DNA from: Bacilli bacterium
GTDB lineage: Bacteria > Bacillota_I > Bacilli_A > RF39 > UBA660
Length of the DNA: 64,000 bases
Direction of reading: 5' to 3'
Assembly: GCA_017404385.1 (NCBI GenBank)
Contig: JAFRCK010000017.1
Location: forward strand, 3,419 to 67,418
Both the position numbers and the translations under genes were made by a program. Below, one piece after another: positions 1-27,122 of the stretch (positions are counted from its first letter, which is position 1; each line of letters begins with the position of its first letter). The notes below the pieces were generated by a model. That model had not been told where the DNA came from and searched no databases. It saw only the letters and a list, made by a program, of their open reading frames with translations.

Positions 1-67
1 ACCCTCTTATTCTGAAGCAAGAAAGAGAACTAAAGAAGAAGTAAAAATATTAACTGATGCTTATATA

Positions 68-1414
68 ATGAATAATAAATTAAGTAAAGTTGGTCTTGGT
101 AAAACATATCATATTATTACTTATGGATGTCAATCTAATGTAAGAGATAGTGAAACTATTAAAGCTATATTAGAAGATATGTCATTTACTGAAATAGAAG
201 ATATGGAAAAAGCAGATCTTATTCTATTAAATACATGTGCAATTAGAGAAAACGCTCATAACAAAGTATTTGGTATGATAGGAAGAGTAAAACATTTAAA
301 AGAAAAAAGACCAGATATTATATTAGCAATAGGTGGATGTATGGCACAAGAAGTATCAGTTGTTAATGAACTTGAAAGAAAAAAGAAATATGTTGATGTA
401 GTATTTGGTACTCATAATATTCAAAATTTACCTAAATTAATAAGTGAAGCAATAGATAAAAATGAACAAGTTATAGAAGTATTTTCTAAAGAAGGGGACA
501 TAGTCGAAAACTTACCTGTTAAAAGAGATAGTATGTATAAAGCATTTGTTAATATTATGTATGGTTGTGATAAATTTTGTACATATTGTATAGTCCCTTT
601 TACTAGAGGAAAACAAAGAAGTAGAAGAAAAGAAGATATATTAAAAGAAATAGATGATTTAATTAAATTAGGTTATCAAGAAGTTACTTTATTAGGACAA
701 AATGTTAATGCTTATGGAAAAGATTTAGATGAAAATATAACAATGGCAGAGTTATTGGAAGAAGTAGCTAAAATTGGTATTCCTAGAATTAGGTTTGTTA
801 CATCTCATCCATGGGATTTTACAGATGATATGATAGATGTTATTGCAAAATATGATAATGTAATGCCATATATACATTTACCAGTTCAATCTGGATCAGA
901 TAAAATATTAAAATTAATGGGTAGAAGATATACAAAAGATAGTTATTTAGAATTATTTCATAAGATTAAGGATAAAGTTAAGAACGCTACTATAACAACT
1001 GATATAATTGTTGGTTTCCCAGGTGAAACTGAAGAAGATTTTAAAGAAACATTAGATGTAGTTAATGAATGTAAGTATGATGGAGCATATACATTTATAT
1101 ATTCACCAAGAGAGAATACACCAGCTGCTTCTATGGAAGATAATGTTTCTTTAAAAGAAAAGGAAGAAAGACTTGCAAGATTAAATGAACTAGTTAATAA
1201 ATACTATAAAGAAAGTAATGATAAAATGCTTAATAAAGTAGTACCAGTTCTTATAGAAGGTGTATCTGATAAAAATGAAACTATGTGTGCGGGATACACT
1301 GATACTATGAAACTAGTTAATGTAAAATGTTCAAAAGATTATATTGGTAAAATAGTAAATGTTAAAATTACTGAAGCTAAAACTTGGAGTTTAGATGGAG
1401 TTTTAGATGAATAA
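68..1414 (+). CDS. miaB: tRNA-i6A37 methylthiotransferase MiaB (radical SAM, UPF0004 + TRAM domains)
   Basis: N-terminal YGCQSN cysteine motif, radical SAM CxxxCxxC (YGCDKFCTYCIVP), about 448 aa, C-terminal TRAM-like region. Confidence 0.8.
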   Translation: MNNKLSKVGLGKTYHIITYGCQSNVRDSETIKAILEDMSFTEIEDMEKADLILLNTCAIRENAHNKVFGMIGRVKHLKEKRPDIILAIGGCMAQEVSVVNELERKKKYVDVVFGTHNIQNLPKLISEAIDKNEQVIEVFSKEGDIVENLPVKRDSMYKAFVNIMYGCDKFCTYCIVPFTRGKQRSRRKEDILKEIDDLIKLGYQEVTLLGQNVNAYGKDLDENITMAELLEEVAKIGIPRIRFVTSHPWDFTDDMIDVIAKYDNVMPYIHLPVQSGSDKILKLMGRRYTKDSYLELFHKIKDKVKNATITTDIIVGFPGETEEDFKETLDVVNECKYDGAYTFIYSPRENTPAASMEDNVSLKEKEERLARLNELVNKYYKESNDKMLNKVVPVLIEGVSDKNETMCAGYTDTMKLVNVKCSKDYIGKIVNVKITEAKTWSLDGVLDE

Positions 1415-1748
1415 TATAATTAAAGATGTAGAAGAGTTAAAAGAATTAATTAAAGAATCAGATGAATATAAAGATTATACAAAAAGTAAAGAATTATTAG
1501 ATAATAATTCTAATGTAAAGAATTTAATTAATAAAATAACTAGTTTACAAAAAGATATAGTTCATAAACAAAGTAAAAAAATTGATGTTAAAGATAAAAA
1601 TAAAGAACTAGATTCATTATATGAGTCATTATATTTAATTAAAGAATATAATGATTATATATCTAGTTCCAAAAAGTTAAACATTTTAATATCTGATGTT
1701 CAAAAAAGATTTAATATATATTTTGATAGTTTAGTAATAGAAAAATAG
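1407..1748 (+). CDS. YmcA/RicA-like small helical protein (by position downstream of miaB)
   Basis: 113-aa K/E-rich ORF overlapping the miaB stop by 8 nt. Same arrangement as B. subtilis ymcB(miaB)-ymcA. No motif verified by eye. Confidence 0.35.
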   Translation: MNNIIKDVEELKELIKESDEYKDYTKSKELLDNNSNVKNLINKITSLQKDIVHKQSKKIDVKDKNKELDSLYESLYLIKEYNDYISSSKKLNILISDVQKRFNIYFDSLVIEK

Positions 1749-1771
1749 TTCTTATTCAGAACTATTTTTTT
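1741..1771. terminator. bidirectional rho-independent terminator shared by convergent genes
   Basis: A-run, perfect stem AGTTCT/AGAACT (1747-1763), T7 run. Both stop codons (TAG 1746-1748 on + and TAA 1752-1754 on -) lie inside the hairpin. Confidence 0.6.
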
Positions 1772-2750
1772 CTAACTTATTTAAATAATATATTACAATT
1801 CCACCTAGTACAAAAGCAACAATTAATCCGCATACTTTTTCAGTTGTAAATGTAATACTTGATTCTAGATTCATTGGTAGTATTATTGCACTTGATATTA
1901 TAAATCCTAGTATTAAACTCATAGTATTTCCTTTATGATTTTTTAATAACTTAGTTAATATCTTAGAACTTACTACAATACCAATTAAAACTCCTATTGC
2001 TAATATACCAAGTTTAAGATATATATTAAAATCAAATTTAGTTATATCAGCAACATATCCTCTAATTAAATCATATCTTCCTAATACAAGCATTACCATA
2101 GATCCAGATATACCTGGGAATATCATAGTAGCACCACCAACAATACCTAAACCAAATAATATTAACATATTCATAAATCCACTATCATCAGTTACTTTAC
2201 TTATACCACCATGTAAGTTAAAGTATTCAAGTATACCAATAATTGCAACTCCAACTAAGAAATAAACTATATTGAATTTTTCATTTTTCATTTCTTTATT
2301 ATATATTAATGGAATACTAAATATAATTAGACCCATAAACCAGAATATTGTTTCTGCTTCCATATGATCTAGAGTATAACCTAATATTTTAGCAAATGCA
2401 ACTAGACCAACCGCAACTCCAATTATTACTTTTAATACATATATAAAACTTTGTTTTCTAGTATCTGTCTTCTTTTTAAATATATCACTTATTGAATATG
2501 CTAATTTATCAAATAGACCAAAAATAACCATCATTGTTCCACCTGATACACCAGGTATAATATTTGCTATTCCAACAGCGATTCCTCCAAAGAATGATCT
2601 TAATTCAAATCTCTTTTCTTTATTTTTCTTTTCTAATTTCTTCTTATTCTTTTCTTCTTTCTTTAATACTCTTAGTTTTTGTTTTTTTGCCTTAGAAAGA
2701 TGTTTTTTCTTTTTCTTAGGTTCTTTTTCTTTTTTACCAAATAGTTTCAT
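1752..2750 (-). CDS. DUF368-family polytopic membrane protein (possible undecaprenyl-phosphate transporter type) with lysine-rich N-terminal tail
   Basis: Repeated PGVSGGT / PGISGSM motifs typical of DUF368, about 8 TM helices. GGAGG RBS 8 nt upstream of ATG (complement of 2748-2750). First about 55 residues are about 50% K. Confidence 0.5.
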   Translation of the reverse strand: MKLFGKKEKEPKKKKKHLSKAKKQKLRVLKKEEKNKKKLEKKNKEKRFELRSFFGGIAVGIANIIPGVSGGTMMVIFGLFDKLAYSISDIFKKKTDTRKQSFIYVLKVIIGVAVGLVAFAKILGYTLDHMEAETIFWFMGLIIFSIPLIYNKEMKNEKFNIVYFLVGVAIIGILEYFNLHGGISKVTDDSGFMNMLILFGLGIVGGATMIFPGISGSMVMLVLGRYDLIRGYVADITKFDFNIYLKLGILAIGVLIGIVVSSKILTKLLKNHKGNTMSLILGFIISSAIILPMNLESSITFTTEKVCGLIVAFVLGGIVIYYLNKLEKNSSE

Positions 2751-2846
2751 GTCTTTAACCTCCAATATAATTATATCATAAATCATTGACTTTTAAACGA
2801 ATAATTGTTAAAATTACATTGAATTTAAAGAGAAAGGAGTGAAAAC

Positions 2847-2945
2847 ATGAAGATAAGATTTTTTAATATTTATAATTTGTTTTTGGTTAGTAGTAAAATT
2901 AAGGGGAAGAATCGTTTTGTTTTTGCTCCTGGTTTTACTTGCTAA
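2847..2945 (+). CDS. 32-codon leader peptide ORF (MKIRFFNIYNLFLVSSKIKGKNRFVFAPGFTC) upstream of ABC exporter
   Basis: Strong RBS AAAGGAGTGA 6 nt before ATG. Stop codon abuts a terminator hairpin. Confidence 0.3.
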   Translation: MKIRFFNIYNLFLVSSKIKGKNRFVFAPGFTC

Positions 2946-2968
2946 CTACTTTTAAAGTAGTTTTTTTA
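2944..2968 (+). terminator. intrinsic terminator/attenuator in leader of ABC exporter
   Basis: AACTACTTT / AAAGTAGTT perfect complementary arms followed by T7. Lies between the leader ORF and the ABC start. Confidence 0.45.
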
Positions 2969-3099
2969 ATGGAATAAAAGAGGTGAGTGAAATGGAAAAG
3001 AAAAAAAAGAAGAAAAAAGAATAATTAAAAAAATATAAAAGTATATGGAACTTATTAAAAGAAGATAAAAAAAATTTAATTATATCTTCTATATTACTT

Positions 3100-4743
3100 G
3101 TGTTAGCGTCTCTAGCAACTTTGCCAACTGGATTTTTAAATGGTGCTGCTACTGAAAGTATAACTAAGATGGAGTTGAATAAAGCAGTAATTTATTTAAT
3201 AATTTACTTTTTAATAGTAGTATTAATGGAGGGTGTTTTATATAGCTCTGCTAGTGCAATGCTTCAAAAAGTTGAATCTAAATTAACTAGAAAATTAGGT
3301 TTTAATACTTATGTTAAAGCATTAAATTTGCCACCAAAGGCATATGAAAAACTATCATCTGGTGAAGTAATAAATAGAATAACAACAGATGCTGATTCAT
3401 TATCATTTGTATTTGGTAGATTACTTGATACATTTACTCATATTGCAGGTTCAATTTTATTATTATTTTATATTTTTTATATATCTCCAATTATTGGTTT
3501 AGAAATAGTATTTGTCGTTGCCATACTTGTATTTGTTATTAAAAAATATAATCCAATACTTGTAAAAACACATAAAGAAAGAAGAAAGGAACAAGATAAG
3601 TTTGCATCTCTTACTAATGAATCAATAAGAGGTATAAGAGAATTAAAAACTCTAGGTATTAAAAATAATTTAATTACTGATATGAGAGATTTAATTAAAG
3701 ATATATTAAATACTAGTATAAAAGAAATTGATACTAGAAGAAGATATGATATAATTACTAGATTTATAAGAGTATCATTAGAGGTAGGATGCTTTATAAC
3801 ATGTATTATATTATTATATTATGGAAAGATTAATTTAACTTTCTTTATAGCCATGACTTATTATATATATAGATATATGTATTTAATGGATTCTATTAAT
3901 GTTTTAACCACTGATTATCAAAGAGTATCTGTTGCGGTAGGAAGAGTAAATGAATTATTAAATAATGAATTATATCAAGATGAGAAATTTGGTGATAAAG
4001 AAATTGATTCTAAAGGAATAATTGAATTTAAAAATGTAACATTTGGTTATCCAAGAGAAAGGAATATTTTAGAAGATTTTAATCTTAAACTTGAACCAAA
4101 TAAAAAGATTGCTATTGTAGGTAAATCTGGTCAAGGTAAATCAACATTATTTAATCTTTTAACTAGAGTATTTGATGTAAAAAAAGGATCTATAACACTA
4201 GATGGAGTTAATATTGAATCTTTAACTGAAGAAAGTTTAAGAAAAAATATTTCTATAATTAGACAAGAGCCATTTGTATTTAATAGAACTATTAAAGAAA
4301 ATTTTAAAATATTAAATCCAAAAATAAATGTAGATGAAATTAGAGAATATACTAAACTTGCATATTTAGATGACTATATAATGTCTTTACCTAAGCAGTA
4401 TGATACTTTACTAGGTGAAGGTGGAGTAAATTTATCAGGTGGTCAAAAACAAAGACTAGCTATAGCAAGAACACTTGCTAAAAAGTCTAGAGTAATACTT
4501 TTTGATGAAGCAACTTCTGCACTTGATAATAATTCACAGGAATACATTAAGAAAACAATTGATAACTTAGTTAAAGATCATACAGTTATTATAGTTGCGC
4601 ATAGATTATCTACTATAATGGATGCTGATATAATATATGTTGTTGATAAAGGAAAAATAGCTGGTTCAGGTACACATGAAGAACTATTAAAAACAAATAA
4701 TATATATAAAAACTTATATGAAACTGAATCTTTAAATTCATAA
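3100..4743 (+). CDS. ABC exporter, fused transmembrane domain + ATPase (type I exporter)
   Basis: Six-helix TMD then Walker A GKSGQGKST, signature LSGGQKQR, Walker B ILFDEATSALD, H-loop AHRL. GTG 3100 is the track start. The reading frame is open from 3025 and an ATG with perfect RBS lies at 2992 in the same frame, separated by an in-frame TAA at 3022-3024. Confidence 0.7.
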   Translation: MLASLATLPTGFLNGAATESITKMELNKAVIYLIIYFLIVVLMEGVLYSSASAMLQKVESKLTRKLGFNTYVKALNLPPKAYEKLSSGEVINRITTDADSLSFVFGRLLDTFTHIAGSILLLFYIFYISPIIGLEIVFVVAILVFVIKKYNPILVKTHKERRKEQDKFASLTNESIRGIRELKTLGIKNNLITDMRDLIKDILNTSIKEIDTRRRYDIITRFIRVSLEVGCFITCIILLYYGKINLTFFIAMTYYIYRYMYLMDSINVLTTDYQRVSVAVGRVNELLNNELYQDEKFGDKEIDSKGIIEFKNVTFGYPRERNILEDFNLKLEPNKKIAIVGKSGQGKSTLFNLLTRVFDVKKGSITLDGVNIESLTEESLRKNISIIRQEPFVFNRTIKENFKILNPKINVDEIREYTKLAYLDDYIMSLPKQYDTLLGEGGVNLSGGQKQRLAIARTLAKKSRVILFDEATSALDNNSQEYIKKTIDNLVKDHTVIIVAHRLSTIMDADIIYVVDKGKIAGSGTHEELLKTNNIYKNLYETESLNS

Positions 4744-4744
4744 A

Positions 4745-4773
4745 GGTAGTTTGAAAAAAACTATCTTTTTTTT
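4745..4773 (+). terminator. rho-independent terminator
   Basis: GGTAGTTT...AAACTATC hairpin + T8. Confidence 0.55.
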
Positions 4774-4814
4774 AAATAATATTTATGTTATTATATAAAA
4801 AAGGAGGAGTATTT

Positions 4815-5267
4815 ATGAAAAAAATTGACAATGAAAAATTAAAAGAAAAAGGAAAGGGATTCTTTGGTGAATTTAAATCATTTGTTTTAAGAGGAAATGT
4901 TATGGATATGGCAATTGGTGTTATTATAGGTGGCGCTTTTGCTACTATAGTAACAGCCTTAACAACTGATTTTATTAATCCATTAATTAATAGTATTGGT
5001 GGAGCAGAATTTGGTGGAAAAATTCATTTACCATGGACACCAAATGGTGCTGAAGGCCAATATCTTCTTTGGGGAGATTTCTTAACAGCAGTTATTAATT
5101 TCTTAATAATGGCATTAATATTATTTATAATGCTTAAAATAGTTAATAAAATAGTAACAGTTGGTAAAAAGAAAAAAGAAGAAGAACCAGCAGCTCCAGT
5201 TAAATCAGATGAAACTATTCTTTTAGAAGAAATTAGAGATTTATTAAAAAAACAAAATAAGAAGTAG
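4815..5267 (+). CDS. mscL: large-conductance mechanosensitive channel MscL
   Basis: FKSFVLRGNVMDMAIGVIIGGAF signature. GGAGG RBS before ATG 4815. Track ORF starts 30 nt earlier. Confidence 0.85.
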   Translation: MKKIDNEKLKEKGKGFFGEFKSFVLRGNVMDMAIGVIIGGAFATIVTALTTDFINPLINSIGGAEFGGKIHLPWTPNGAEGQYLLWGDFLTAVINFLIMALILFIMLKIVNKIVTVGKKKKEEEPAAPVKSDETILLEEIRDLLKKQNKK

Positions 5268-5281
5268 GAAGGAATAAAAAT

Positions 5282-6175
5282 ATGGCAGATATGTTAGTTG
5301 CTAGAGATATTGTAAAAGTCTATGGCAAAAGAACTGTATTAAAAAAAGTAAACATGAATATCCAAAAAGGTGATATTTATGGTTTTATAGGTAAAAATGG
5401 TGCTGGTAAAACTACTTTCATGAGAGTTATTTTATCACTTACTTATCCACAATCTGGAGATGTAAAATTATTTGGTGATAAAACACTTCAAGAAGTAGGT
5501 TTAAAAGTTGGATCTTTGATTGAGGCCCCAGGTATTTATAAGAATTTAACTGGAGAAGAAAACTTAAGAAGATTTTCTATTCTATATGGAGCAGATCCAG
5601 ATAAAGCACCAGAATTATTAAAGTTAGTAGGGTTAAATAATACTGGTAAAAAGAAAGCAAAAGATTATTCTTTAGGAATGAGACAAAGACTTGGAATAGC
5701 TATTGCTTTAATAGGTGATCCAGAATTATTACTTCTAGATGAACCAATTAATGGTTTAGATCCAGAAGGTATTAAAGAAATAAGAGATTTAATTCTTAAA
5801 TTAAATGAAGAAAAAGGTATCACATTCTTAATTTCATCTCACTTATTAGATGAACTTGGTAAAGTTGTTACTAAGTATGGAATAATAAATGATGGTGAAA
5901 TGTTAGAAGAAATAGGTGCAGAAGAATTAAGAGAAAAATGTAAACAAAAATTAACTATTGAAGTAGATGATTTAGCTAAAGCTATGTCTATAGCTGCGAA
6001 AATAGTTAAGGAAGAAAATCTATCTGGTAATAAACATATTATGACTGTTGAAGGTGAAGTATCTAAAGCTGCTGAGCTTAATACTGCACTTGTAAAAGGC
6101 GGAGTTGCTGTTAAAGCTATCTATCCTAATTCAGATACTTTAGAAGAATACTTTATGAAAAGGATAGGTGAGTAA
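5282..6175 (+). CDS. ABC transporter ATP-binding protein (ABC-2/bacitracin-type exporter ATPase)
   Basis: Walker A GKNGAGKTT, signature YSLGMRQRL, Walker B LLLLDEP, H-loop SSH. Confidence 0.8.
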   Translation: MADMLVARDIVKVYGKRTVLKKVNMNIQKGDIYGFIGKNGAGKTTFMRVILSLTYPQSGDVKLFGDKTLQEVGLKVGSLIEAPGIYKNLTGEENLRRFSILYGADPDKAPELLKLVGLNNTGKKKAKDYSLGMRQRLGIAIALIGDPELLLLDEPINGLDPEGIKEIRDLILKLNEEKGITFLISSHLLDELGKVVTKYGIINDGEMLEEIGAEELREKCKQKLTIEVDDLAKAMSIAAKIVKEENLSGNKHIMTVEGEVSKAAELNTALVKGGVAVKAIYPNSDTLEEYFMKRIGE

Positions 6176-6176
6176 T

Positions 6177-6893
6177 ATGAGTAGGTTATTAAAAGTTTAT
6201 TTAAGAAATATATTTAAACAAAAAGGATATTATGTATGTACAGGTATTAGTTTACTAATAGGTGTAATTATTCCTTTTATAATATCTTTATTTATTAAAA
6301 GCACTGATACAATTACATTAGCTAGTAGAATAGTAGATTCATTTAAAGTAGATATAATTATAGTTATATATATAACATTATTTGTATGTAGTGATTTTAC
6401 AGATGGAACTGCTAAAAACTTTATAGCTAGAGGTTATTCTAGAAGACAAATACTATATGGTAAATATTTAGCTTCTTTAATAGCAGTAGGAGTATACTTC
6501 TTAGGATGTTTAGCATTCACATTAGCATTCTTTGCTAAAGATGGATTAAACTTCACAATATCTGATCTTTATATGATATTAGCAGCAATAGCTACAGCAG
6601 TAGCATCAACTGGTTTATATGTAATCGTTGCTAATACTGCAGAAAAAGTATCAACAGGTATTGCAGTAAACATAATAATGTTCTCATTCTTCAGTTTATT
6701 ATTAGAAGGATTAACTACATTATTAAAACTAAATATTAATTTATCTAATTATTGGATTACTGGTCTAACTAGTTTAATGGGAGAAAAAGCTGTATTAGTT
6801 GATCTATTCAAGGTAATAGGTATAGCAGCAGTATATCTAGTATTACTATTTGAGATAAGTAATTTTATAATAAAGAAAAAAGAAGTAAAATAA
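6177..6893 (+). CDS. ABC-2 type permease partner
   Basis: 6-TM hydrophobic protein with translational overlap with the ATPase gene. AGGTG SD 6 nt before ATG 6177. Confidence 0.6.
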   Translation: MSRLLKVYLRNIFKQKGYYVCTGISLLIGVIIPFIISLFIKSTDTITLASRIVDSFKVDIIIVIYITLFVCSDFTDGTAKNFIARGYSRRQILYGKYLASLIAVGVYFLGCLAFTLAFFAKDGLNFTISDLYMILAAIATAVASTGLYVIVANTAEKVSTGIAVNIIMFSFFSLLLEGLTTLLKLNINLSNYWITGLTSLMGEKAVLVDLFKVIGIAAVYLVLLFEISNFIIKKKEVK

Positions 6894-6896
6894 AAA

Positions 6897-6929
6897 AATA
6901 TACAAAATATCTTGTATATTTTTTTTTAT
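6897..6929 (+). terminator. rho-independent terminator
   Basis: Perfect 9-bp stem AATATACAA/TTGTATATT + T7. Confidence 0.6.
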
Positions 6930-6931
6930 TT

Positions 6932-6940
6932 TGTTATAAT
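6932..6940 (+). promoter_or_regulatory. extended -10 element TGtTATAAT for tRNA-Met
   Basis: TG-N-TATAAT 17 nt upstream of mature tRNA 5' end, with an AT-rich UP-like tract upstream. Confidence 0.4.
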
Positions 6941-6957
6941 CTATATGTAATTTTGAT

Positions 6958-7034
6958 GGCGATGTAGCTCAGTTGGCTAGAGCGTTCGGTTCATACCCGA
7001 AAGGTCGTGGGTTCGACCCCCTCCGTCGCTACCA
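6958..7034 (+). tRNA. tRNA-Met (anticodon CAT), elongator type
   Basis: 77-nt cloverleaf: acceptor GGCGATG/CGTCGCT, D-arm GCTC..GAGC, anticodon stem TTCGG/CCGAA with loop TTCATAC, T-arm GTGGG TTCGACC CCCTC, encoded CCA. Near-identical to Bacillus elongator tRNA-Met. tRNA-Ile(LAU) cannot be excluded from sequence alone. Confidence 0.85.
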
Positions 7035-7045
7035 TATAGATTATA

Positions 7046-7070
7046 ACCGAACTTAACAGTTCGTTTTTTT
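7046..7070 (+). terminator. rho-independent terminator after tRNA
   Basis: CGAACT taac AGTTCG + T7. Confidence 0.6.
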
Positions 7071-7101
7071 ATGAATACTTGTAGTTTACATGGAGGTTTA
7101 A

Positions 7102-7896
7102 ATGCAAATAATACATAATAATAACTTAAATAAAATAAGCACGAGAGAAGATCTTATTGATCTTTTAAATAAATATAATGGTATATTAACTGATCCAACT
7201 ATCAGTTATTTAAAATCTTTAATAGATTTAGATTTTTCTGTTATTAATAATTATATATATGAAAGTGGAAGATCTGCTTTATCTGAATTAGAAATATATA
7301 AAAAGGCAACAATTTATAATATTTATAATAGAGCATTAAACTTATTTAAACAAAATGATTCGGAATTAACAATTTCAGGTAATGATGAAGGTATTGAAGG
7401 ATTAAAAGTATATTCTAAAATAGGAGATAGAAACTTAATATTATTTGATTATGATTATAAAGATAGTATAGGAAATTTATCTTTATTTAAAACAATTGAA
7501 AGTAAAGAACAAAGAGATGAAGAATTAAGAAGAGTAATGTGTGAATTAGATAAACTATATGATGAAAAAAATCCATATCATTCTATTCCTAATACTTATG
7601 GTGGACCTGCTTCTCAATGGGTTTTTGAACATGCTAAAAAAATACAAGAATATGAAGAAAGATTTAATCAATTAGTTTCTAAAAAAGAATTAACTGATGA
7701 AGATAAAAAAGAAATAGAAATAACAAAAAAGTATCATGAATTATTATTAGAAGATTATGGATTAACAAATAAGGACTTTGAAAAAGAACCTAATTTTCAT
7801 ATTTTAGATTTTGATAGAGATAGAACAAAAATGCATAAAACTCTTGTTAAAAAGATGCCATGTACAAATATTAAAAACAATATTAAATTTATTTAA
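7102..7896 (+). CDS. hypothetical protein (264 aa, no recognisable motif)
   Basis: GGAGG RBS. Own terminator. Soluble, N/K/E-rich. Confidence 0.5.
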   Translation: MQIIHNNNLNKISTREDLIDLLNKYNGILTDPTISYLKSLIDLDFSVINNYIYESGRSALSELEIYKKATIYNIYNRALNLFKQNDSELTISGNDEGIEGLKVYSKIGDRNLILFDYDYKDSIGNLSLFKTIESKEQRDEELRRVMCELDKLYDEKNPYHSIPNTYGGPASQWVFEHAKKIQEYEERFNQLVSKKELTDEDKKEIEITKKYHELLLEDYGLTNKDFEKEPNFHILDFDRDRTKMHKTLVKKMPCTNIKNNIKFI

Positions 7897-7928
7897 AAAG
7901 TCGAACTAGAAATAGTTCGTTTTTTTTA
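7897..7928 (+). terminator. rho-independent terminator (CGAACTAGAAATAGTTCG hairpin, copy 1)
   Basis: Stem CGAACT/AGTTCG, loop AGAAAT, T8. Confidence 0.6.
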
Positions 7929-8189
7929 AGAATTATATAATGCATAAATGTATGGCATAATTATTTTTGAAGCAAGGATGGTAGAAAATACTAGAACAAA
8001 CTAAAATAAAGATTAAAAGAAGAAGGAAATGAAACGGTTACAAATTGTAACCAGTTGAAATTGAATGCAATTAAAGAATTAGGTGGGTCTATGTCTGAAG
8101 ATTTATCAAAACCAGAAAAAAGTTTAAAAGAACCAGAAAAGGATAATAAAAAATATATTAATTTAATAAAATATTTATTTTCCCCTTAA

Positions 8190-8218
8190 TTGACTTTTTC
8201 CCTTATTTAGTTTAGAAT
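8190..8218 (+). promoter_or_regulatory. sigma-A-type promoter TTGACT-17-TAGAAT
   Basis: Near-consensus -35 (8190-8195) and -10 (8213-8218) with 17-nt spacer, about 50 nt upstream of the 8271 start. Confidence 0.5.
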
Positions 8219-8270
8219 AACTTCCTAATGAAATGGGGAGTTATTATATAAAAATATGGAGGTTAATATT

Positions 8271-10562
8271 ATGGGGAGAGATATTTTTAAATATTATGCA
8301 TTATCTATGTATCAACAAGTTATAAATGAAAAACAAATACAACTAGATTCATATAAAACTTATGATACTAGGGATGATAAAGGAATAATTTTGTTTATTT
8401 CTTATGATATAAAATCAATTGAGATGTCCAATAATGTATTCGTAAATAATGTAAATTATACTGGAAATTTATCGTTTTATTATGATGAAAGTAAAAATTT
8501 TATAACAATAGTAGATTTACCATCTATTAGTTATAATTTTGATACATTTAAAATCTTTTCAGATGATATTTTAAATATTATAAAGAAAATAATTAGTAAG
8601 TATACATCCATTGAAGATGTAAAAATATCAATGAATCCATTTCTTGTTTTTGCATATAGTAATAATGTAAAAAAATATCTTAGAGAAGCTAGTAATATTT
8701 CATTAATTGATAGCATTGTTCGAAAAATGAATATAGTAATTGATAGTTTAAGTAGGAAAATAATAAATGATAAGAAAAAGAGAGATGAAGAATTAGAAAA
8801 ACAACAAAGAATTCTTGAAAAAAGAAAAACTCTTTTTGAATTAAAAAAGGAAGACTTTAAAAGTATTGATGAATATATAAAAACCTTAAACGAAAAGATT
8901 GTAGAGTATGCTAAATCTAATTATAAAAAATATGATAGACACTATCAAATTAATATAAAGAAACTAATGATTATATTTCAAGAAGAATTTGAATTAGCTG
9001 AAAAATTGGAAGAAGCTTTATTTAATCCAGAAGAATACTTCATATGGGAAGATTTATTTGATATGGAAGAATACTTAAAATGGGAAGATGATAGGGAAGA
9101 AGGAATAAAAAAATATAAAGAGATTTTAAATAATGTAAGAAGAATAGTATCTGAGTATGTAGAAGCAATAGGAGATAACTTTAGAAAAATAACTCAAGAT
9201 AGATTTGATGCAATTCTTGAAATCCACCCACATGCGGACCCATATGATCCTGATTTAGATCGTGAGATAATGTTTCAGCACGACTTTAATAAAGCTTTTG
9301 ATGAAGAATGTTCTTATTATCAAAGTCAACTCGAAGATGAGGAAACATATCCTTATATAAAAAAACTTTTTTGTAATAAATATAGAGAGTACGATGATTA
9401 TATTTATTATTTTTTGGATAAATACTTTCCTAAACAGATTAAAATTCTTAATTTAACTATGTTAGTATATCGTTCACAAGAAAAAATGAAAAAATATAAA
9501 GAATATATTGAAAACCCTAATCTTTTTTATGATTTTGGCAGTAAAAGATTATGGAGTGTAATAATGGAATTTCCTTATTTTTTAAGATTAGGTTGTGGAT
9601 ATAATTCAGTTTGGGAACAACGATATATTTATTCATTAATTATAAAGCCAGGAGTAAAAAGAATAGATTATGATAATTTGAGATATTTTTCAAAAAATTC
9701 AAAATATGATTCTTTTGTGGGTTCAATTGAAAGAAAGTGTCTTGGAGAAGTTAAAAAAGATTACTCTTGTGATAAGATTACTATAACTATTCCTAGTTCT
9801 TTGGAACTACATGAAATTGATAAAGTAATTAGTTTTGGATTTAAAAATGCTCGTCATGGTATCAATTATGTATGTGAAAATATAGATATAGCTAATTATG
9901 TTAAAAAAAGAATTGTCTATAAATACTTAAACAAATATACATATGAAGGTAATGTATTTGTAAATGTTGATCCTAAATATTATGATAATTATTTTACAAC
10001 TTTACCAAATAATTCAGATTTCTATCATCAATATGATTATAGTTCTAATTATAGATATAGTCGAAAAGATATAAATAGTTTTAATGTGATTATAGAAGCA
10101 TGTATAAGTTATAATAGATTTAAAAACAATGGTGTTATTAACAGGGAAGAAGTAGAAGAACAATTATTAGGGTCATATGGTGAATTAAAATATGAATCAT
10201 TTAATATTTCACCATATGATGCAATAGCTAGATATTTAAAAAATGAAGGACGAAAAAGTAATATTATATTTCCATTAATTGATCAATATTTAAGTATAGA
10301 TAAAGATATTAATCAATATTTAATAGAAAACGAAATCCCAAGACCAGTTAATTATGATGAATTTGTAAAGTTAAAATATTTGATACTTAAGGATAGATTA
10401 TCGTCAATTGATTATGATAACATAAAGTATCATTGCATAGGAAGAAAAAAAGAGGAATATATAAATAAAGCAATGGAAATTTCATCAAAAAATAGGCAAA
10501 AAAAATATACAAAATATAATGAACAATATATACAAGACTTTTATAAAAATAGTGAATTATAA
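8271..10562 (+). CDS. large hypothetical protein (about 763 aa), Y/D/E/K-rich, no TM, no recognisable domain
   Basis: GGAGG RBS before ATG 8271. Internal imperfect repeat EEYFIWED / EEYLKWED. Confidence 0.55.
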   Translation: MGRDIFKYYALSMYQQVINEKQIQLDSYKTYDTRDDKGIILFISYDIKSIEMSNNVFVNNVNYTGNLSFYYDESKNFITIVDLPSISYNFDTFKIFSDDILNIIKKIISKYTSIEDVKISMNPFLVFAYSNNVKKYLREASNISLIDSIVRKMNIVIDSLSRKIINDKKKRDEELEKQQRILEKRKTLFELKKEDFKSIDEYIKTLNEKIVEYAKSNYKKYDRHYQINIKKLMIIFQEEFELAEKLEEALFNPEEYFIWEDLFDMEEYLKWEDDREEGIKKYKEILNNVRRIVSEYVEAIGDNFRKITQDRFDAILEIHPHADPYDPDLDREIMFQHDFNKAFDEECSYYQSQLEDEETYPYIKKLFCNKYREYDDYIYYFLDKYFPKQIKILNLTMLVYRSQEKMKKYKEYIENPNLFYDFGSKRLWSVIMEFPYFLRLGCGYNSVWEQRYIYSLIIKPGVKRIDYDNLRYFSKNSKYDSFVGSIERKCLGEVKKDYSCDKITITIPSSLELHEIDKVISFGFKNARHGINYVCENIDIANYVKKRIVYKYLNKYTYEGNVFVNVDPKYYDNYFTTLPNNSDFYHQYDYSSNYRYSRKDINSFNVIIEACISYNRFKNNGVINREEVEEQLLGSYGELKYESFNISPYDAIARYLKNEGRKSNIIFPLIDQYLSIDKDINQYLIENEIPRPVNYDEFVKLKYLILKDRLSSIDYDNIKYHCIGRKKEEYINKAMEISSKNRQKKYTKYNEQYIQDFYKNSEL

Positions 10563-10762
10563 TAAAAAAAAATTAAAAGTGAAAGAAATGTATAAATGAC
10601 ACAAGTTGAGATTATTGCAGCTAATCTCAAAAATAATAATAAAAATTCTGTTTAAAGAATAATTAAAAAAATTTGTGTTTATGAAAGAGTAAGTAGTGAA
10701 AGCACTGATTACGAAGAACAATTAACAAGTTATTCTTCACAAATAAAATAGAATTTATATAT

Positions 10763-10790
10763 AATCGAACTAGAAATAGTTCGATTTTTT
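10763..10790 (+). terminator. rho-independent terminator (CGAACTAGAAATAGTTCG hairpin, copy 2)
   Basis: Identical 18-nt hairpin to 7902-7919, followed by T7. About 200 nt after the preceding stop. Confidence 0.55.
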
Positions 10791-10823
10791 TAATATTTAT
10801 GTTATAATTTTCTCGGTGATTAC

Positions 10824-11453
10824 ATGAAAAACAATAGAATAGTAGACATATCACAATTTTATGATGAAAATGTAGGAACAATAAATAGATTAACAATGAA
10901 TAGTTCTATAGAAACTCTTTCAAAGTTTGATAAATTGCTACCGGATGATGATGAAATTTCTTCTGACGATATTGCTACTTCATGGAGATATGGATATTTA
11001 ATGAAATACTTTATGGGTGTAATAGTTACAGATGAATTAGATAAAGATACTACTCAAGATGTTCGTAATTATAATAATATTATAGAGAATATTAGATTTA
11101 GAATGTTTATTATGTTTTTTAGAGAAAACTATAGTAACAATGTTATATATTATGAAGAATTTGTTAAGTTTAGTAGATTATTAAATGAAACTATTATTCA
11201 TGATGAAGATATAGTTAGTGCTGATTTTAAAGATAAAATTATTAGTTCATTAAAAACATATTCTAATGATAATTTAGGAGTAGTTTATAATATTATTCAT
11301 GAACTAAATGGTAAAGAATATAAATTTGATAAGAACAAATTAAAATTAGTTATTGGTAGGGTTAAAACTATGAGTTTAGACTCTTTTGGTGAAGAAGTTG
11401 ATAAAATAGAATCTAGAAAAAATATTTTGGAATTAATAAAAAAAGAAGATTAA
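10824..11453 (+). CDS. hypothetical protein (209 aa)
   Basis: Extended -10 TGtTATAAT about 20 nt upstream, GGTGA RBS. No motif recognised. Confidence 0.5.
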   Translation: MKNNRIVDISQFYDENVGTINRLTMNSSIETLSKFDKLLPDDDEISSDDIATSWRYGYLMKYFMGVIVTDELDKDTTQDVRNYNNIIENIRFRMFIMFFRENYSNNVIYYEEFVKFSRLLNETIIHDEDIVSADFKDKIISSLKTYSNDNLGVVYNIIHELNGKEYKFDKNKLKLVIGRVKTMSLDSFGEEVDKIESRKNILELIKKED

Positions 11454-11512
11454 TGATATAATCTTTTTTTATGTTATAATTAAATTGTTAGTATAGTGAA
11501 GGAGTGAATATT

Positions 11513-11947
11513 ATGAAAAAGAAAATGCTATTAGGATTATTAGTCACTATTCCATTTTTAACTGCATGTGGAAGTAATGGTGGTAGTGGTAATGTTATGA
11601 GATGCTCAGATTATTCAGGAGCTGAAATGAGTGGTTACGCATTCAAGTTTGATGGTGATAAACTATCAAAGATGGGAATGTTTGAAGGTATTGATTTAAA
11701 TAAAGTCAGTAAAGAAGATGGATGTACTGATAAATCAAGTTGTACTAAATTAGCTGAAACTGCATTACCAGAGTGTGAAAATGATGAGTATATGGAAAGT
11801 TGTAATATTGAATCTGATGATGATACAGTAATAATAGTAGGTTATTATAATGAAAAAGGAATGAAATCTGAAAGAAATTATAGTGTAGGTATGTCTAAAT
11901 CAGAAGTTAAAAAACAAGCTGAATCAGAAGGATTTACTTGTAGATAA
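11513..11947 (+). CDS. Cys-rich lipoprotein (144 aa)
   Basis: Signal peptide with lipobox LTAC. Eight further cysteines in the mature part. GGAG RBS. Terminator TGAACTattAGTTCA+T at about 11949-11975. Confidence 0.55.
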   Translation: MKKKMLLGLLVTIPFLTACGSNGGSGNVMRCSDYSGAEMSGYAFKFDGDKLSKMGMFEGIDLNKVSKEDGCTDKSSCTKLAETALPECENDEYMESCNIESDDDTVIIVGYYNEKGMKSERNYSVGMSKSEVKKQAESEGFTCR

Positions 11948-12022
11948 ATGAACTATTAGTTCATTTTTTTCTTGCTTTAAATTATTATTAGTATATAATA
12001 GTTTGCTATAGGTGGTGATATT

Positions 12023-12676
12023 ATGTCAAAAGAAGAAAATGTATTTAATTATTATCTTTTATGTAATAAATTAAAAGATGTTGTAAGAACAGGTTGGAAA
12101 GATTGGAATGTTAAAAGAGAAAGAGTAGAAAGCATTGCGGAACATATTTTTGGAGTTCAAATGCTTGCGATTGCGATGAAATCAGAATATCAATATAATA
12201 TAGATATTAAGAAAGTAATATTTATGCTTGCTATTCATGAACTAGGAGAAACTATTATAGGTGATTTGACACAATTTCAAATAACAAAAGAAGAAAAAGA
12301 AAAAATAGAACATGAAGCTGTTCATAATATTTTATCTTCATTAATAGATGGTGAAAAAATAGAAGAATTATTTTTAGAATTTGATGCTCATGAGACACCT
12401 GAAGCTTTATTTGCGTATCAGTGTGATAAATTAGAATGTGATATACAATGTAAATTATATGATCACGAGGGATGTGTAGATCTTAATCATCAAGAAAATA
12501 ATTCAACAGCATCTAATAAAGAAGTAAAGGAATTGTTAGATAGTGGTAAGTCATGGTCAGATATGTGGATGGAGTTTGGTCAAAAAAGATATCCATATGA
12601 TAATAATTTTATGTCAGTGTCTGAATATGTAAAAGGAATAAAGAAAATTAAAAAACTAAAACTAGAAAATAACTAA
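12023..12676 (+). CDS. HD-domain phosphohydrolase (YfbR-like 5'-deoxynucleotidase family)
   Basis: H...HD metal-binding pattern (IAEHIFGV ... AIHELGETIIGD). Confidence 0.55.
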   Translation: MSKEENVFNYYLLCNKLKDVVRTGWKDWNVKRERVESIAEHIFGVQMLAIAMKSEYQYNIDIKKVIFMLAIHELGETIIGDLTQFQITKEEKEKIEHEAVHNILSSLIDGEKIEELFLEFDAHETPEALFAYQCDKLECDIQCKLYDHEGCVDLNHQENNSTASNKEVKELLDSGKSWSDMWMEFGQKRYPYDNNFMSVSEYVKGIKKIKKLKLENN

Positions 12677-12702
12677 TATGTTATAATTTAAGAGGTGATA
12701 AC

Positions 12703-13392
12703 GTGAAAATAGGAATATTATTTGCGATGAAGGAAGAGTTAGATGCACTTCTTTCTAAAATAGAATTAAAGAATAGTTATGAAATATTTGATTTAAAATT
12801 TTATGAATGTGAATTAAATAATATAAATTGTACTTTGGTAGAATGTGGTATAGGTAAAGTAAATGCAGCAAGAAGTACTCAAATACTTATAGATAATATG
12901 AAAGTAGATTATATTATAAATGTAGGTGTTGCGGGTGGTATATCAAAAGATTTAGATGTATGTGATATTGTAATAGGTGAAAAACTAGTTCAACATGATT
13001 TTGATTTAACAGGATTTAATCATGAAAAAGGATATATACCAAATGTAGGTAAATATATAGATGCAGATGAATACTTAGTAAAAATTGCTATGGATAATAG
13101 TGAAGGATTAAACATTCATAAAGGCATAATTGCTTCAGGTGATATATTTGTAACAGAAGAAAAAATGAGTGATAAAATTAATACTAAATTTAATGCTCTA
13201 TGTGTAGAAATGGAAGGAGCTAGTATAGCTCAAGTTTGTTATTTATCACATATACCATTCTTAGTTATAAGATCTATATCTGATTCACCTAAAAAAGGTA
13301 ATAATAAAATGACTTATGATGAATTTGTTATAAAAAGTTCTGATATAGTATCTAAATATGTTTTAAAAATATTAATGTCATTAAACAATTAA
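12703..13392 (+). CDS. mtnN: 5'-methylthioadenosine/S-adenosylhomocysteine nucleosidase
   Basis: MKIGILFAMKEE..., GIGKVNAA, VGVAGG, MEGASIAQV motifs. GTG start with AGAGGTGA RBS. Extended -10 at 12679-12687. Confidence 0.8.
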   Translation: MKIGILFAMKEELDALLSKIELKNSYEIFDLKFYECELNNINCTLVECGIGKVNAARSTQILIDNMKVDYIINVGVAGGISKDLDVCDIVIGEKLVQHDFDLTGFNHEKGYIPNVGKYIDADEYLVKIAMDNSEGLNIHKGIIASGDIFVTEEKMSDKINTKFNALCVEMEGASIAQVCYLSHIPFLVIRSISDSPKKGNNKMTYDEFVIKSSDIVSKYVLKILMSLNN

Positions 13393-19921: not shown

Positions 19922-20757
19922 CATTTATAAATTTATATAAAAATAATTATAAACTTACTAACATGTGTGCCGTACTTAATATAAGTCCTAAAACCTATTA
20001 TAAATATAGAAATAAGGAAGATCCAGATTATTATGATTATTTAATGATAAAAGAAATATTTGATAATTCTAAGGGTACATATGGATATCGTAGGATTGTT
20101 GATGGCCTACTCCAAAAGTATGGTGTAGTTATGAATGGAAAAAAGGTATTAAGAGTAATGAAAAAATATAATTTAATGGCTGAATATATAAGGAAATCAA
20201 GGAAGAAAAATAAAAATGAGAGAATTGAAGATAATGTTAAACCAAATCTATTGAATAGAAATTTTACTACTGATGCACCAAATAAAGTGTGGGATACAGA
20301 TGTAACATATCTTATATTTAAAGGTTCAAGAGCATATTTATCAACAATAATAATAGATTTATATGATAGACATGTAGTTGCATATAAAATATCTAAACAT
20401 AATGATAATAAATTAGTTATAGATACTTTAAATGAAGCTTTATCAAAAGAAAAAGATGTACATGGATTGATCATTCACAGTGATCAGGGATTCCAATATA
20501 CATCTTTTGAGTACAAAGTTATTTGTGAATCAAACGGAATACAAATTTCTATGGCTAGAAAAGGAAATCCAATTGATGACTCTCCTATAGAGAGTTGGCA
20601 TCCACTTCTTAAGAAAGAAACTTTGTACAACAATAATATTACATCTTTACAAGAATATATTCAACTTGTAGAAGAATGGATATTATTTTATAACACAAAT
20701 AGATTAAAGTCAAAAGTTAAGAAAAAGAGAAAAACTTATACAAAAAGAGAAAAGTAA
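19880..20757 (+). CDS. IS3-family transposase OrfB (DDE integrase core), expressed as OrfAB by -1 frameshift
   Basis: -1 frame open from the A_AAA_AAA heptamer through HSDQGFQYTS (rve domain) to 20757. Track ORF 19963 is the internal Met. Confidence 0.75.
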
Positions 20758-23523: not shown

Positions 23524-24030
23524 TTAATGTTCATTAGAATGAGTAAAATAACCATTTATTAATTCTTTACTTTGATTAATACTAATAAATGCATTAATAT
23601 CAACAGAGTTAATTAGACTAATTAATTCATTCTTTCGTTTATTATTAATAAAAGAATAAACTATATAAATATTTGTCCCATATAATCCATGTGCATTTAT
23701 TATAGAACCTGAATATCTATGCTCTTTTAATATATCAAACACTTCATTTTTATTGGTTATAATTTGAACAAGTAATTTCTTTTTAGATAATTTAGTAGTT
23801 AATAAAGAAGCAAGATATGTTCCAATAGAATAACCGGCTGCGTAACTAATTGCGATTAGTATTTCATTTTTATCATCTAGCGCTAATTTAATTATTAAGA
23901 ACCAAATAATAATTTGAACAAAACTAAGTATAGAACTCATTATTCTTTTTTCATCTATTAATAGTATTGTAGATATAGTGGATGTAAAAGCTTCAATTGT
24001 TTTTAATAAAAGTATAAGTATAAATAACAT
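23524..24030 (-). CDS. small membrane protein with DUF2179-like C-terminal domain (YitT-family fragment architecture)
   Basis: 3 TM helices then ...INAHGLYG...DINAFISI pattern. GGTGA RBS. Confidence 0.4.
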   Translation of the reverse strand: MLFILILLLKTIEAFTSTISTILLIDEKRIMSSILSFVQIIIWFLIIKLALDDKNEILIAISYAAGYSIGTYLASLLTTKLSKKKLLVQIITNKNEVFDILKEHRYSGSIINAHGLYGTNIYIVYSFINNKRKNELISLINSVDINAFISINQSKELINGYFTHSNEH

Positions 24031-24103
24031 ATAATCACCATTATTAGTTTTTTATTTATTTAAAAAAATATTCTAATATGTTAGAATATTTTTAGGTGAT
24101 TTT

Positions 24104-24931
24104 ATGAAATTAAAAGTAAATAATTTTAATTTAAAAGATACTGTTACTTGTGGTCAAATATTTAGATTTGAAGAAGAAGTAGATAATTCTTATACAGTTA
24201 TTCTTTCTGATAGAGTAATTAATATAAAACTAGTGGGAAATGAATTAGTAGTAAAATCATCTGATGAAAATAATTTAGAAAAAGTAATAAGAAATTATTT
24301 TGATTTAGACTATGATTATGAAATAATAAATAAAGAATTGTTAAAAATAGATTCAAGTAATAAAAGTATAATTGATTCATGTAAAGGTTTAAAAATGATT
24401 AATGAACCTATATTTGAAACAATAATTAGTTATATAATTTCTTCTAATAATAGAGTTCCACAAATTAAAAAAGCATTAGATAATATATCTAAAACTTATG
24501 GAAAAAAAGTAGTTTTTAATAATAAAGAATATTATTTGTTTCCAAGTTTAGAAGAGATAAGTAATTGTGATATTAATACACTTAGAAATTGCAAGGTAGG
24601 TTTTAGGGATAAATACATTTATGAATTTATTAATAAAGTAAAGAATAATGAATTTGATATTAATAGAATTATAGAAATGAATAGTGAAGATGCACTAGAA
24701 TACTTAAAAACTCTTAATGGAGTAGGAGATAAAGTGGCTTCATGTATTTTATTATTTGCTTATCATAGATTTGATGTATTTCCAATTGATACATGGGTAA
24801 AAAAATATATGAAAGATAAGTATAATATTGAAGGAGTTAATAAAATACAAGATTTTGTGTATAAAAAATATAGAAATTATTCAGGTATAGTTATTCAATA
24901 TATGTTTCATTATAAAAGAAATAAGAATTAA
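24104..24931 (+). CDS. 8-oxoguanine DNA glycosylase (Ogg, HhH-GPD superfamily)
   Basis: OGG_N-like LKDTVTCGQIFRFEE and HhH-GPD LKTLNGVGDKVASCILLFAYHRFDVFPIDTWV with catalytic K and D. Confidence 0.7.
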   Translation: MKLKVNNFNLKDTVTCGQIFRFEEEVDNSYTVILSDRVINIKLVGNELVVKSSDENNLEKVIRNYFDLDYDYEIINKELLKIDSSNKSIIDSCKGLKMINEPIFETIISYIISSNNRVPQIKKALDNISKTYGKKVVFNNKEYYLFPSLEEISNCDINTLRNCKVGFRDKYIYEFINKVKNNEFDINRIIEMNSEDALEYLKTLNGVGDKVASCILLFAYHRFDVFPIDTWVKKYMKDKYNIEGVNKIQDFVYKKYRNYSGIVIQYMFHYKRNKN

Positions 24932-26001
24932 TTCTTATTTTTTTTAATTTTTATATTTGAAATTAATAATAATATTATTATGGGAATAAAAAATATGAAT
25001 ATAAAGTATTTCATCATAAAATTGGAACCTATGGTCGTATTATTAAATAATACTAATGAAGTTATAAAACTAATAATTATTATAAAACCAAATATTTTTT
25101 TATTATATTTATTAATATAATTAAGATATTCTTTAATAAAGAATAATGATAAAACAGTTGATATAAATATTGAGTACAACCATTCAATTGTAGATAAATT
25201 TTCAATATGTTGAATAAAGTCAAAGAAATTTACTTTTTTCATTAGAGTATATTCTGGATAACTTAAAATTCTAGCTAAATCTATGCCAAATACACCTATT
25301 ATAAAAATAAATAATAATAGAAAATTAATAATAGTTATTATATAAAAAATAATTATAGTTTTTGATAGTTTATTTGACTCATATATTTCATTTTTTGGTA
25401 TTACTAATAACATAAATGTAGGTGAAACAAAATATGATGTAAATAATATTGAATCTTTAATTATTTTAATTATAGGGGTATTAAACCAAGGTTTTAAATT
25501 ATTAATTTCTATAGAAGAATATAAATTTAGAATTGAAAAGAGAATTATAAAAACAGTTACTAAAAAAACAGATATTGATACCTTAGATATGGTTTTCATA
25601 TTTAATGATGCACACCATACAGCTGGTATTAAGAATAATAAAATTATAATAAAACTAGGTGTAGAATCTAAATATTTATTTTGCACATAAGTGTTAATAC
25701 TCCAAAGAGAATATATAAAATAAAATGTAAATATAATTACTAAAAAAACATTAATGATTTTACCATAAGATCTAAATAATTTATCGTTCTTTTTAAATAG
25801 ATTTAAATCTTTTTCAAAATTAAAATATCTAATAATAAAGAATAGTATTATCATAGATAATAATCCACCTAATAATATAGAATAAATACTACCATTACCA
25901 GATCCATTTAATAATTGATTTAACCCAGTATGTAGAAACATAGTCTGTGATATAAAAAATATAATTGAAGAAAAACCAATTCTACTTATTTTAGTGTTCA
26001 T
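24928..26001 (-). CDS. spore germinant receptor B subunit (GerAB/GerKB family permease)
   Basis: 10-TM APC-like protein, third gene of gerA-type operon. AAAGGAG RBS. Confidence 0.65.
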   Translation of the reverse strand: MNTKISRIGFSSIIFFISQTMFLHTGLNQLLNGSGNGSIYSILLGGLLSMIILFFIIRYFNFEKDLNLFKKNDKLFRSYGKIINVFLVIIFTFYFIYSLWSINTYVQNKYLDSTPSFIIILLFLIPAVWCASLNMKTISKVSISVFLVTVFIILFSILNLYSSIEINNLKPWFNTPIIKIIKDSILFTSYFVSPTFMLLVIPKNEIYESNKLSKTIIIFYIITIINFLLLFIFIIGVFGIDLARILSYPEYTLMKKVNFFDFIQHIENLSTIEWLYSIFISTVLSLFFIKEYLNYINKYNKKIFGFIIIISFITSLVLFNNTTIGSNFMMKYFIFIFFIPIIILLLISNIKIKKNKN

Positions 26002-27121: not shown

Positions 27122-27122
27122 A

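Follow-up and report, generated by a model that had tools for sequence, protein, structure and literature searches.

The 64,000-nucleotide (nt) stretch of DNA analyzed here (hereafter the window; positions 3,419 to 67,418 of contig JAFRCK010000017.1 in the Bacilli bacterium assembly GCA_017404385.1) has a GC content of ~25.6% and matches public contigs from ruminant gut metagenomes. Downstream of a tRNA-Met gene it encodes three proteins of 264, 763, and 209 amino acids (aa), the genes for which are here designated A, B, and C (Table 1). This locus is probably a variable accessory-gene slot beside tRNA-Met in an uncultured ruminant-gut Bacilli species of ~25% GC, kept by homologous recombination. 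Between A and C, different strains carry alternative cassettes, either a Bro-N (PDC-S13) gene or B accompanied by a 69-nt Bro-N stump. In the mechanism proposed, B would have arrived secondarily, thereby destroying the Bro-N gene; and strains would exchange the locus by homologous recombination through conserved flanks, rather than by means of a site-specific recombinase.

Haplotypes of the slot

Comparison of the tRNA-Met flank across relatives recovered three haplotypes, which include states with and without B. In the window type, tRNA-Met is followed by A, B, and C and then by genes for a lipoprotein, an HD_3 protein, and a methylthioadenosine (MTA) nucleosidase. The B-less type, in the order tRNA-Met flank, A, Bro-N gene, C, and lipoprotein gene, is found in the GTDB representative (L014) and on at least 24 contigs, among them the 10 places L074–L083. 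The third type, that of a related strain (L009), equals the window type with an insert between the tRNA and A. B was detected on at least 16 contigs, as well as in L009; among seven places on these contigs, six have C downstream and five A upstream, the longer ones showing the full gene order of the window. A and C are encoded in every close relative compared (L009, L014, and L074–L082), with C also present in L083, for which the record is cut upstream; C is thereby common to all three haplotypes.

In the B-less haplotype, the slot of B holds a 281-aa gene with a Pfam Bro-N domain (4.5e-8), and the L014 copy matches the PADLOC candidate PDC-S13 end to end (1.8e-108). There is no similarity between B and the Bro-N/PDC-S13 protein. 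An intact Bro-N domain (PF02498) is missing from the window, which retains only the 69-nt remnant, the counterpart of a central portion of the Bro-N gene in L014. Because only this stump remains, we infer that the Bro-N gene was probably ancestral and that B replaced it, with loss of the Bro-N gene. The segment found in the window and L009 and absent from L014 and L074–L083 comprises a 32-aa open reading frame (ORF), a promoter-like site (8190–8218), B itself, and the 200-nt 3′ region of B. A 48-nt direct repeat brackets the slot in both haplotypes, and homology with L014 resumes at 10784, at the hairpin of the right repeat copy. The locus is a hotspot in the sense that related strains carry different accessory or defense-type genes in one slot, with conserved flanks on both sides.

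Divergence and recombination

Sliding-identity comparison of the window with L014 identified a block at 5237–12780 that is 98–100% identical, the B/Bro-N swap aside, whereas the chromosome outside these limits is ~85–90% identical. Synonymous divergence (dS) from L014 is 0.55–0.73 in the outer flanks (ABC permease, MscL, MTA nucleosidase, and MurD) and 0.02–0.08 in the inner block, which the ABC ATPase and HD genes delimit. A block of such high identity within more diverged surroundings indicates a recently recombined segment, and positions 5237–12780 thus appear to be a recent homologous-recombination tract centered on the variable slot.

Divergence from L009 is distributed differently. B has 99% nt identity (dS 0.017), and the lipoprotein gene next to C has 98–100% nt identity (dS 0.06), whereas A has 94% nt identity (dS 0.147) and dS for C reaches 0.357; in the identity profile, a 99% block extends over ~8130–10930. 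B is thereby 99% identical between two strains in which the neighboring genes are 6–20% diverged. These contrasting gene divergences argue that the locus is a recombination mosaic, and B appears to have been exchanged between strains very recently. The ratio of nonsynonymous to synonymous divergence (dN/dS) is 0.30 (L009) and 0.59 (L014) for A, 0.43 for B (L009 only), and 0.37 (L009) and 0.66 (L014) for C, compared, against L009, with 0.06–0.26 in five genes of the flanks, the lipoprotein gene having a value of 0; estimates made at very low divergence, such as those against L014, are noisy, with L009 being the more diverged relative. By this measure, A, B, and C are all real genes, evolving faster than their neighbors.

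The tRNA-Met flank as an insertion site

Exactly at the 3′ end of tRNA-Met, equivalent to 7034/7035 of the window, L009 carries an insert of 3.06 kb (L009:6869–9928), a single-gene element without an integrase at an att-like site of a tRNA. The insert starts right after CGCTACCA, carries its own similar hairpin, and ends on the right with CTCCGT-ACCATATAG, where a degenerate version of the tRNA end that was displaced (CTCCGT-ACCA) meets the native flank; the tRNA end is regenerated. It contains a single ORF on the minus strand (7064–9775), the 903-aa product of which has no Pfam, NCBIfam, or PADLOC match and no recombinase domain. The precise placement of this insert shows that the sequence 3′ of tRNA-Met does serve for insertion, which bears out the positional argument of the original prediction, made from the sequence of the window, that such flanks are used for integration.

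Gene A and its family

A belongs to a family of at least 278 homologous protein clusters (E ≤ 1e-3), from metagenome-assembled genomes labeled Bacilli or Mollicutes and without Pfam annotation; among the best 120 of these 278 clusters, relatives are 43–100% identical to A. The family was found in at least 57 species-representative genomes, which include uncultured gut Bacilli, “Tenericutes,” and Clostridium sp. CAG:417 and CAG:609. Scanning 26 family members with Pfam yielded no consistent family. The AlphaFold2 model of A, with a predicted local distance difference test (pLDDT) score of 79, combines a helical domain at the N terminus, a sheet of four strands, a long helical hairpin, and a beta-hairpin at the C terminus. 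No PDB relative was identified, either by sequence with a family profile or by a fold search with the model.

Close relatives have A downstream of tRNA-Met, as do two genomes at a greater distance (L020 and L052), the first of which also has HD and MTA-nucleosidase genes near A. Across the family, a same-strand tRNA or tmRNA gene within 10 kb of A is upstream in 25 loci vs. downstream in 5, with a similar amount of sequence on each side. The immediate upstream neighbor is such a tRNA or tmRNA gene for A in 7/55 loci vs. 20/839 for other genes (Fisher p = 8e-4); the window and L014, a close relative, are among the 7, and the other genes were taken from the same loci. The identity of the upstream gene varies (Met, Thr, Leu, Glu, Arg, Phe, and tmRNA), even among fairly close A sequences. 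On the other side, the gene directly after A is often of defense type: Abi_2 in L016, L018, and L019 (three species), Fic (SoFic model) in L020 and L052, PDC-S13 in L014, and a viperin-like gene in L050 (9e-48); in L022, a PD-Lambda-2_B-like gene is in second position after A.

The neighbors of A are extremely diverse across 61 loci and are often housekeeping genes (pcrA-ligA, ogt-tag, pepF, ABC-F, pheST, rpsL/G, rsgA-rpe, dnaE, and yidC). Where a genome encodes two A genes, these are old divergent paralogues, not recent copies. We take A to be a lineage-specific gene of the chromosome and not mobile cargo. It may long have been adjacent to an integration hotspot, with rearrangement among islands at different tRNAs changing the tRNA upstream.

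Several other arrangements were observed in the family. Two A-family genes (240 and 252 aa) are in tandem in L066 (9920–11430), and two divergent A paralogues occur on separate contigs in several genomes (L027/L048, L025/L061, and L023/L063). In L011, positions 1–9786 carry PcfK, PcfJ, a DnaB_2-domain gene, a resolvase, a DnaB_C helicase, and a tyrosine integrase and stop immediately short of a tRNA-Leu(CAA) gene, which an A homologue directly follows; a layout of this kind, with the element 5′ of the tRNA, is unusual. The genes that follow A in L011, of 213 and 710 aa, are similar in size to C and B and are unrelated to them.

Gene B

A word-indexed search for B returned B itself and one protein that is 39% identical, whereas 1.84 billion representatives (clusters at 50% identity), searched exhaustively with a profile, yielded 66 relatives, 35 of them below 1e-30. 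The family is thus real, if very sparse. Most relatives are 650–950 aa in length, and the strongly conserved motifs of the family include IKPG, TIPxS, NFICE, FVNVDPxYY, and WHxYDYSSxYKYxRK. Of 66 loci scanned with a hidden Markov model (HMM) of the B family, only three contained B: the window, L009, and L008. In the AlphaFold2 model (pLDDT 71), a beta-rich N-terminal domain (1–230) and an alpha/beta C-terminal domain (~430–650) are confidently predicted, and the middle (~140–420) consists of long helices, partly of low confidence, in agreement with the coiled-coil middle noted in the original prediction. A search with the family profile identified no PDB relative, and comparison of the fold with BFVD gave nothing below an E-value of 0.01, the sole alignments being to coiled-coil proteins of the SMC/Rad50 type. 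Structure-based searching, advocated in the original prediction, thus revealed no relationship for A or for B. B has no Walker or other ATPase motif. Its candidacy as a caspase-like or PD-(D/E)xK enzyme was rejected, as inspection of the conserved residues by eye gave no convincing catalytic arrangement.

The 39%-identical homologue is encoded in L008 directly upstream of mraZ-rsmH-ftsL-PBP (penicillin-binding protein). Other homologues (L071–L073) are beside genes for a cation ATPase, a flavin reductase, a short-chain dehydrogenase/reductase, and an aldo-keto reductase. In the window, murD and another Mur ligase gene follow 3 kb downstream of B.

Gene C

The product of C is acidic (pI 4.9). 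Only six homologues were found, all 60–100% identical, and tblastn located C only in L009 and L014. A single-sequence search of the PDB was empty. C is strongly polymorphic, with two alleles of 76% protein identity set between flanks of 98–100% identity; nt identity with L009 is ~80% across the gene body and 84.8% over the whole gene. The split points to selection, either diversifying or balancing, or to the replacement of an allele. The allele contrast spans positions 10930–11520 of the window. A proposal of A, B, and C as a conserved trio was rejected because B and C are found in few loci only.

Alternative interpretations

The original prediction cast A, B, and C as one island of accessory genes. 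In the classical form of this model, the three were integrated at the 3′ end of tRNA-Met by a site-specific recombinase, the integrase for which has since been lost; this is very improbable, and we consider it largely refuted. The genes do lie directly downstream of the tRNA, which ends at 7034 with A starting at 7102, and the same tRNA end was used in L009. The preference of the A family for tRNA and tmRNA genes (25 vs. 5 loci; 7/55 vs. 20/839) fits such an island, as could the slightly low GC (21–23%): values for A, B, and C are 21.4–22.8% vs. 26.2 ± 2.8% for 28 other genes (only ~1.2–1.7 standard deviations lower), and GC at third codon positions (6.8–12.2% vs. 10.8 ± 2.8%) is within ~1.5 standard deviations of the mean. 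However, no integrase or recombinase domain was found in A, B, or C with Pfam, NCBIfam, or PHROG, in accordance with the original prediction, which had seen no integrase. Neither the last 18 nt of the tRNA nor the 22 nt spanning its end has a second copy in the window at up to three mismatches, so that the direct repeat of the tRNA 3′ end suggested near 11.5 kb is missing; a repeat search of the region returned terminator-like repeats only; and, in 25 loci of the A family, no exact att-like repeat rose above the level of shuffled sequence. The block also fails to vary as a whole, since B alone varies among close relatives. A and C are in all of these and A is among core genes in many genomes; conservation at this position in relatives holds for A, for C within close relatives only, and not for B. 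The description as accessory cargo is thereby apt for the strain-variable B and not for A or C. Neither A nor B was found in the viral contigs of IMG/VR, and a phage origin was rejected on this ground. With three different evolutionary histories, A-B-C is a composite and not one integrated island.

Another possibility is that A and the variable gene that follows it constitute one module, with A acting as a DNA-binding regulator of the cassette or as a recombination or targeting factor. The tendency of A to lie 3′ of tRNA and tmRNA genes of widely varied identity is compatible with such a role, as is a following gene that is often of defense type and always different between lineages. We nevertheless regard it as quite unlikely: A is followed by housekeeping genes in many genomes (ABC-F in nine species, pcrA-ligA in three, and ogt-tag in two); hints of a helix-turn-helix are below every threshold; the genomes with two A genes contain old paralogues; A does not occur in viral contigs; and the tRNA bias can be explained without any activity of A, as that of a long-standing neighbor of a hotspot. 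The function of B has been weighed separately. From the slot it occupies, B may be a cytoplasmic, self-contained conflict or anti-phage defense protein, a tentative assignment made because this slot holds a defense candidate in sister strains and defense-type genes in other species, and because B is a self-contained, strain-variable, and recently exchanged gene. The broader proposal that B founds an undescribed single-gene conflict family without PDB relatives, spread by homologous recombination, and that A marks a recurrent accessory or defense slot near tRNAs across the clade, is unlikely. The main alternative to defense is a non-defense accessory role, such as that of a coiled-coil scaffold in envelope, division, or chromosome biology, for which replacement of the Bro-N gene would be incidental; this too we consider doubtful. 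It is in keeping with two globular domains held ~250 residues of long helices apart, with the SMC/Rad50-type alignments (all non-significant), with the positions of the L008 homologue and of B in the window close to mraZ and murD, respectively, and with homologue contexts other than defense islands. Against this, B is dispensable within the species, with a common haplotype (at least 24 contigs) lacking it; no ATPase motif and no PDB relative were detected; the family is extremely sparse (66 clusters among 1.84 billion); and dN/dS is 0.43, together with recent exchange between strains.

Several observations weigh against the interpretation preferred here, that of a variable accessory-gene slot with possible defense functions. 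B has no match in Pfam, PADLOC, PHROG, or NCBIfam, and those of its homologues with known context are solitary beside ordinary genes rather than in defense islands. PDC-S13 is itself a computational candidate only, and no paper in the collection searched names it. The enrichment of defense-type genes after A is putative, drawn from individual cases. The left breakpoint of the B segment is inside the Bro-N gene and not at the 48-nt repeat, which thus accounts for the right boundary only, and the stump is the one line of evidence for the direction of the swap, with the Bro-N gene as the ancestral state.

Features of the locus

Table 1. Positions of features in and around the tRNA-Met locus of the window
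Feature	Position	Strand	Source and remarks
tRNA-Met (anticodon CAT)	6958–7034	+	ARAGORN; Rfam tRNA, 64 bits
Terminator hairpin CGAACT-TAAC-AGTTCG (CGAACTTAACAGTTCG) with T-run, 3′ of tRNA-Met	7048–7070 (stem-loop 7048–7063)	+	Terminator scan
Gene A, 264 aa	7102–7896	+	ORF table
Left copy of 48-nt direct repeat (83% identical)	7894–7941	+	Repeat search
Terminator hairpin GAACTAGAAATAGTTC after A	7902–7919	+	Terminator scan; inside left 48-nt repeat
Bro-N gene remnant, 69 nt (18 codons), reading RLKEEGNETVTNCNQLKL behind a stop codon	8002–8070	+	blastn, 94% to L014 11051–11119
Segment in window and L009, absent from L014 and L074–L083	8071–10783	+	Alignment breakpoints vs. L014; gene tables
Gene B, 763 aa from ATG behind GGAGG	8271–10562	+	ORF table; same start in public annotation
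Right copy of 48-nt direct repeat (83% identical)	10758–10805	+	Repeat search
Terminator hairpin 200 nt after B, just before C	10763–10786	+	Terminator scan; inside right 48-nt repeat
Gene C, 209 aa	10824–11453	+	ORF table
GAACT-loop-AGTTC hairpins	7049–7062 (after tRNA), 7903–7918 (after A), 10767–10782 (after B), 11950–11962 (after lipoprotein gene)		

The three forward-strand genes described in the original prediction, together with the tRNA-Met gene and the hairpin that precedes them, were recovered at these positions; the ORF of B opens at 8256 (768 aa). The tRNA-Met gene is the only tRNA gene identified by ARAGORN in the window, and Rfam gave nothing besides this tRNA in the intergenic regions. 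The original prediction described all three genes as orphans with no recognizable motif. The second part of this description stands, in that A, B, and C have no significant match in Pfam, PADLOC, PHROG, or NCBIfam, the scans having given sub-threshold noise only, and no PADLOC family at E-values of up to 1; the first does not apply to A, given its numerous homologues, and applies loosely to B, given 66 remote representatives. B was also described as extremely rich in Tyr, Asp, Glu, and Lys, which is accurate for Tyr (9.8% vs. 5.5% background), with Asp, Glu, and Lys only slightly above background.

Each gene had been credited with its own extended −10 promoter and its own terminator. C has a perfect extended −10 element (TGTTATAAT), inside the right 48-nt repeat, and B is preceded by the promoter-like sequence TTGACT-17-TAGAAT (at 8190–8218). 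For A, only ~31 nt separate the tRNA terminator from the start codon, and no usable −35/−10 pair fits; because there is no room for a promoter of its own, A is probably transcribed by read-through of the tRNA unit. Promoter-like matches are not enriched in the region (53 vs. 50.2 in shuffles). Terminators were confirmed for A and B, and a scan of 6850–12100 detected none for C. Terminator-like hairpins number five in 6850–12100 vs. 0.4 expected. Hairpins of the form GAACT-loop-AGTTC also number five in the window, where 0.17 are expected: four are clustered in this 5-kb locus, with the sole copy outside it at 45529. The clustered four may have a common origin or may be recombination substrates. 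Integron-type cassettes were considered and rejected, as there is no integrase, the hairpins have stems of 16–24 nt and T-runs characteristic of intrinsic terminators, and B and C have promoter-like sites of their own.

Between the Bro-N remnant and the promoter-like site of B is a 32-aa ORF (MSEDLSKPEKSLKEPEKDNKKYINLIKYLFSP; 8091–8189), a candidate gene that is annotated in public contigs and falls within the segment found only together with B. The only recombinase-like gene in the gene tables of the neighborhood encodes an insertion sequence (IS)-type transposase of 264 aa (19963–20757), ~8.5 kb downstream, for which a matching public contig has HTH_21, rve, and rve_3 domains. Farther along, in a side region at 24000–28500, GC falls to 18.5% at 24–26 kb and GC skew is negative at 26–28 kb, with three minus-strand ORFs of 357–471 aa in a window that is otherwise forward-strand.

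Comparison with known systems

Hotspots of accessory or defense genes that lie between conserved flanks of the chromosome and are exchanged through homologous recombination are known from enterobacteria, Vibrio, and Pseudomonas. As in those, unrelated single-gene cassettes (Bro-N/PDC-S13 or B) share a slot within one population, each cassette has a promoter-like site and a terminator, and a near-identical 7.5-kb recombinant block lies within otherwise diverged chromosomes. The present locus differs in having two cassette states and one extra insert only, and in that B is without a known defense signature and the Bro-N gene is only predicted to be a defense candidate. To our knowledge, no hotspot of this kind has been described in this lineage of uncultured low-GC Bacilli.

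The locus resembles islands targeted to tRNA and tmRNA genes by tyrosine integrases in its location immediately 3′ of a tRNA and in the L009 insert at the tRNA-Met 3′ end. Unlike such islands, A-B-C has no integrase, att repeat, or strong compositional shift, A and C do not vary in presence among close relatives, and the L009 insert encodes a single protein without a recombinase domain. PDC-S13 is matched by the slot gene of the sister haplotype, of which the window keeps a fragment, the gene having been destroyed. B is similar to lactococcal Abi proteins (Abi_2/AbiD) in being large, cytoplasmic (predicted), AT-rich, stand-alone, and patchily distributed, and three other species have an Abi_2 gene in the equivalent position after A; unlike Abi proteins, B matches no Abi model in PADLOC or Pfam.

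Implications

The locus is a real and fairly ordinary variable region, and a new example of an accessory or defense-type slot near a tRNA. It exemplifies strain-level turnover of accessory genes in uncultured gut Bacilli of ~25% GC, organisms without genetics and with few characterized genes. It also offers two protein families for study: that of A, found in at least 57 species with a bias toward tRNA flanks and defense-type neighbors, and that of B, which is rare, exchanged between strains, and without a recognizable fold. Were B a defense protein, it would represent a new type of effector; otherwise, the locus would be an ordinary variable region of hypothetical genes.

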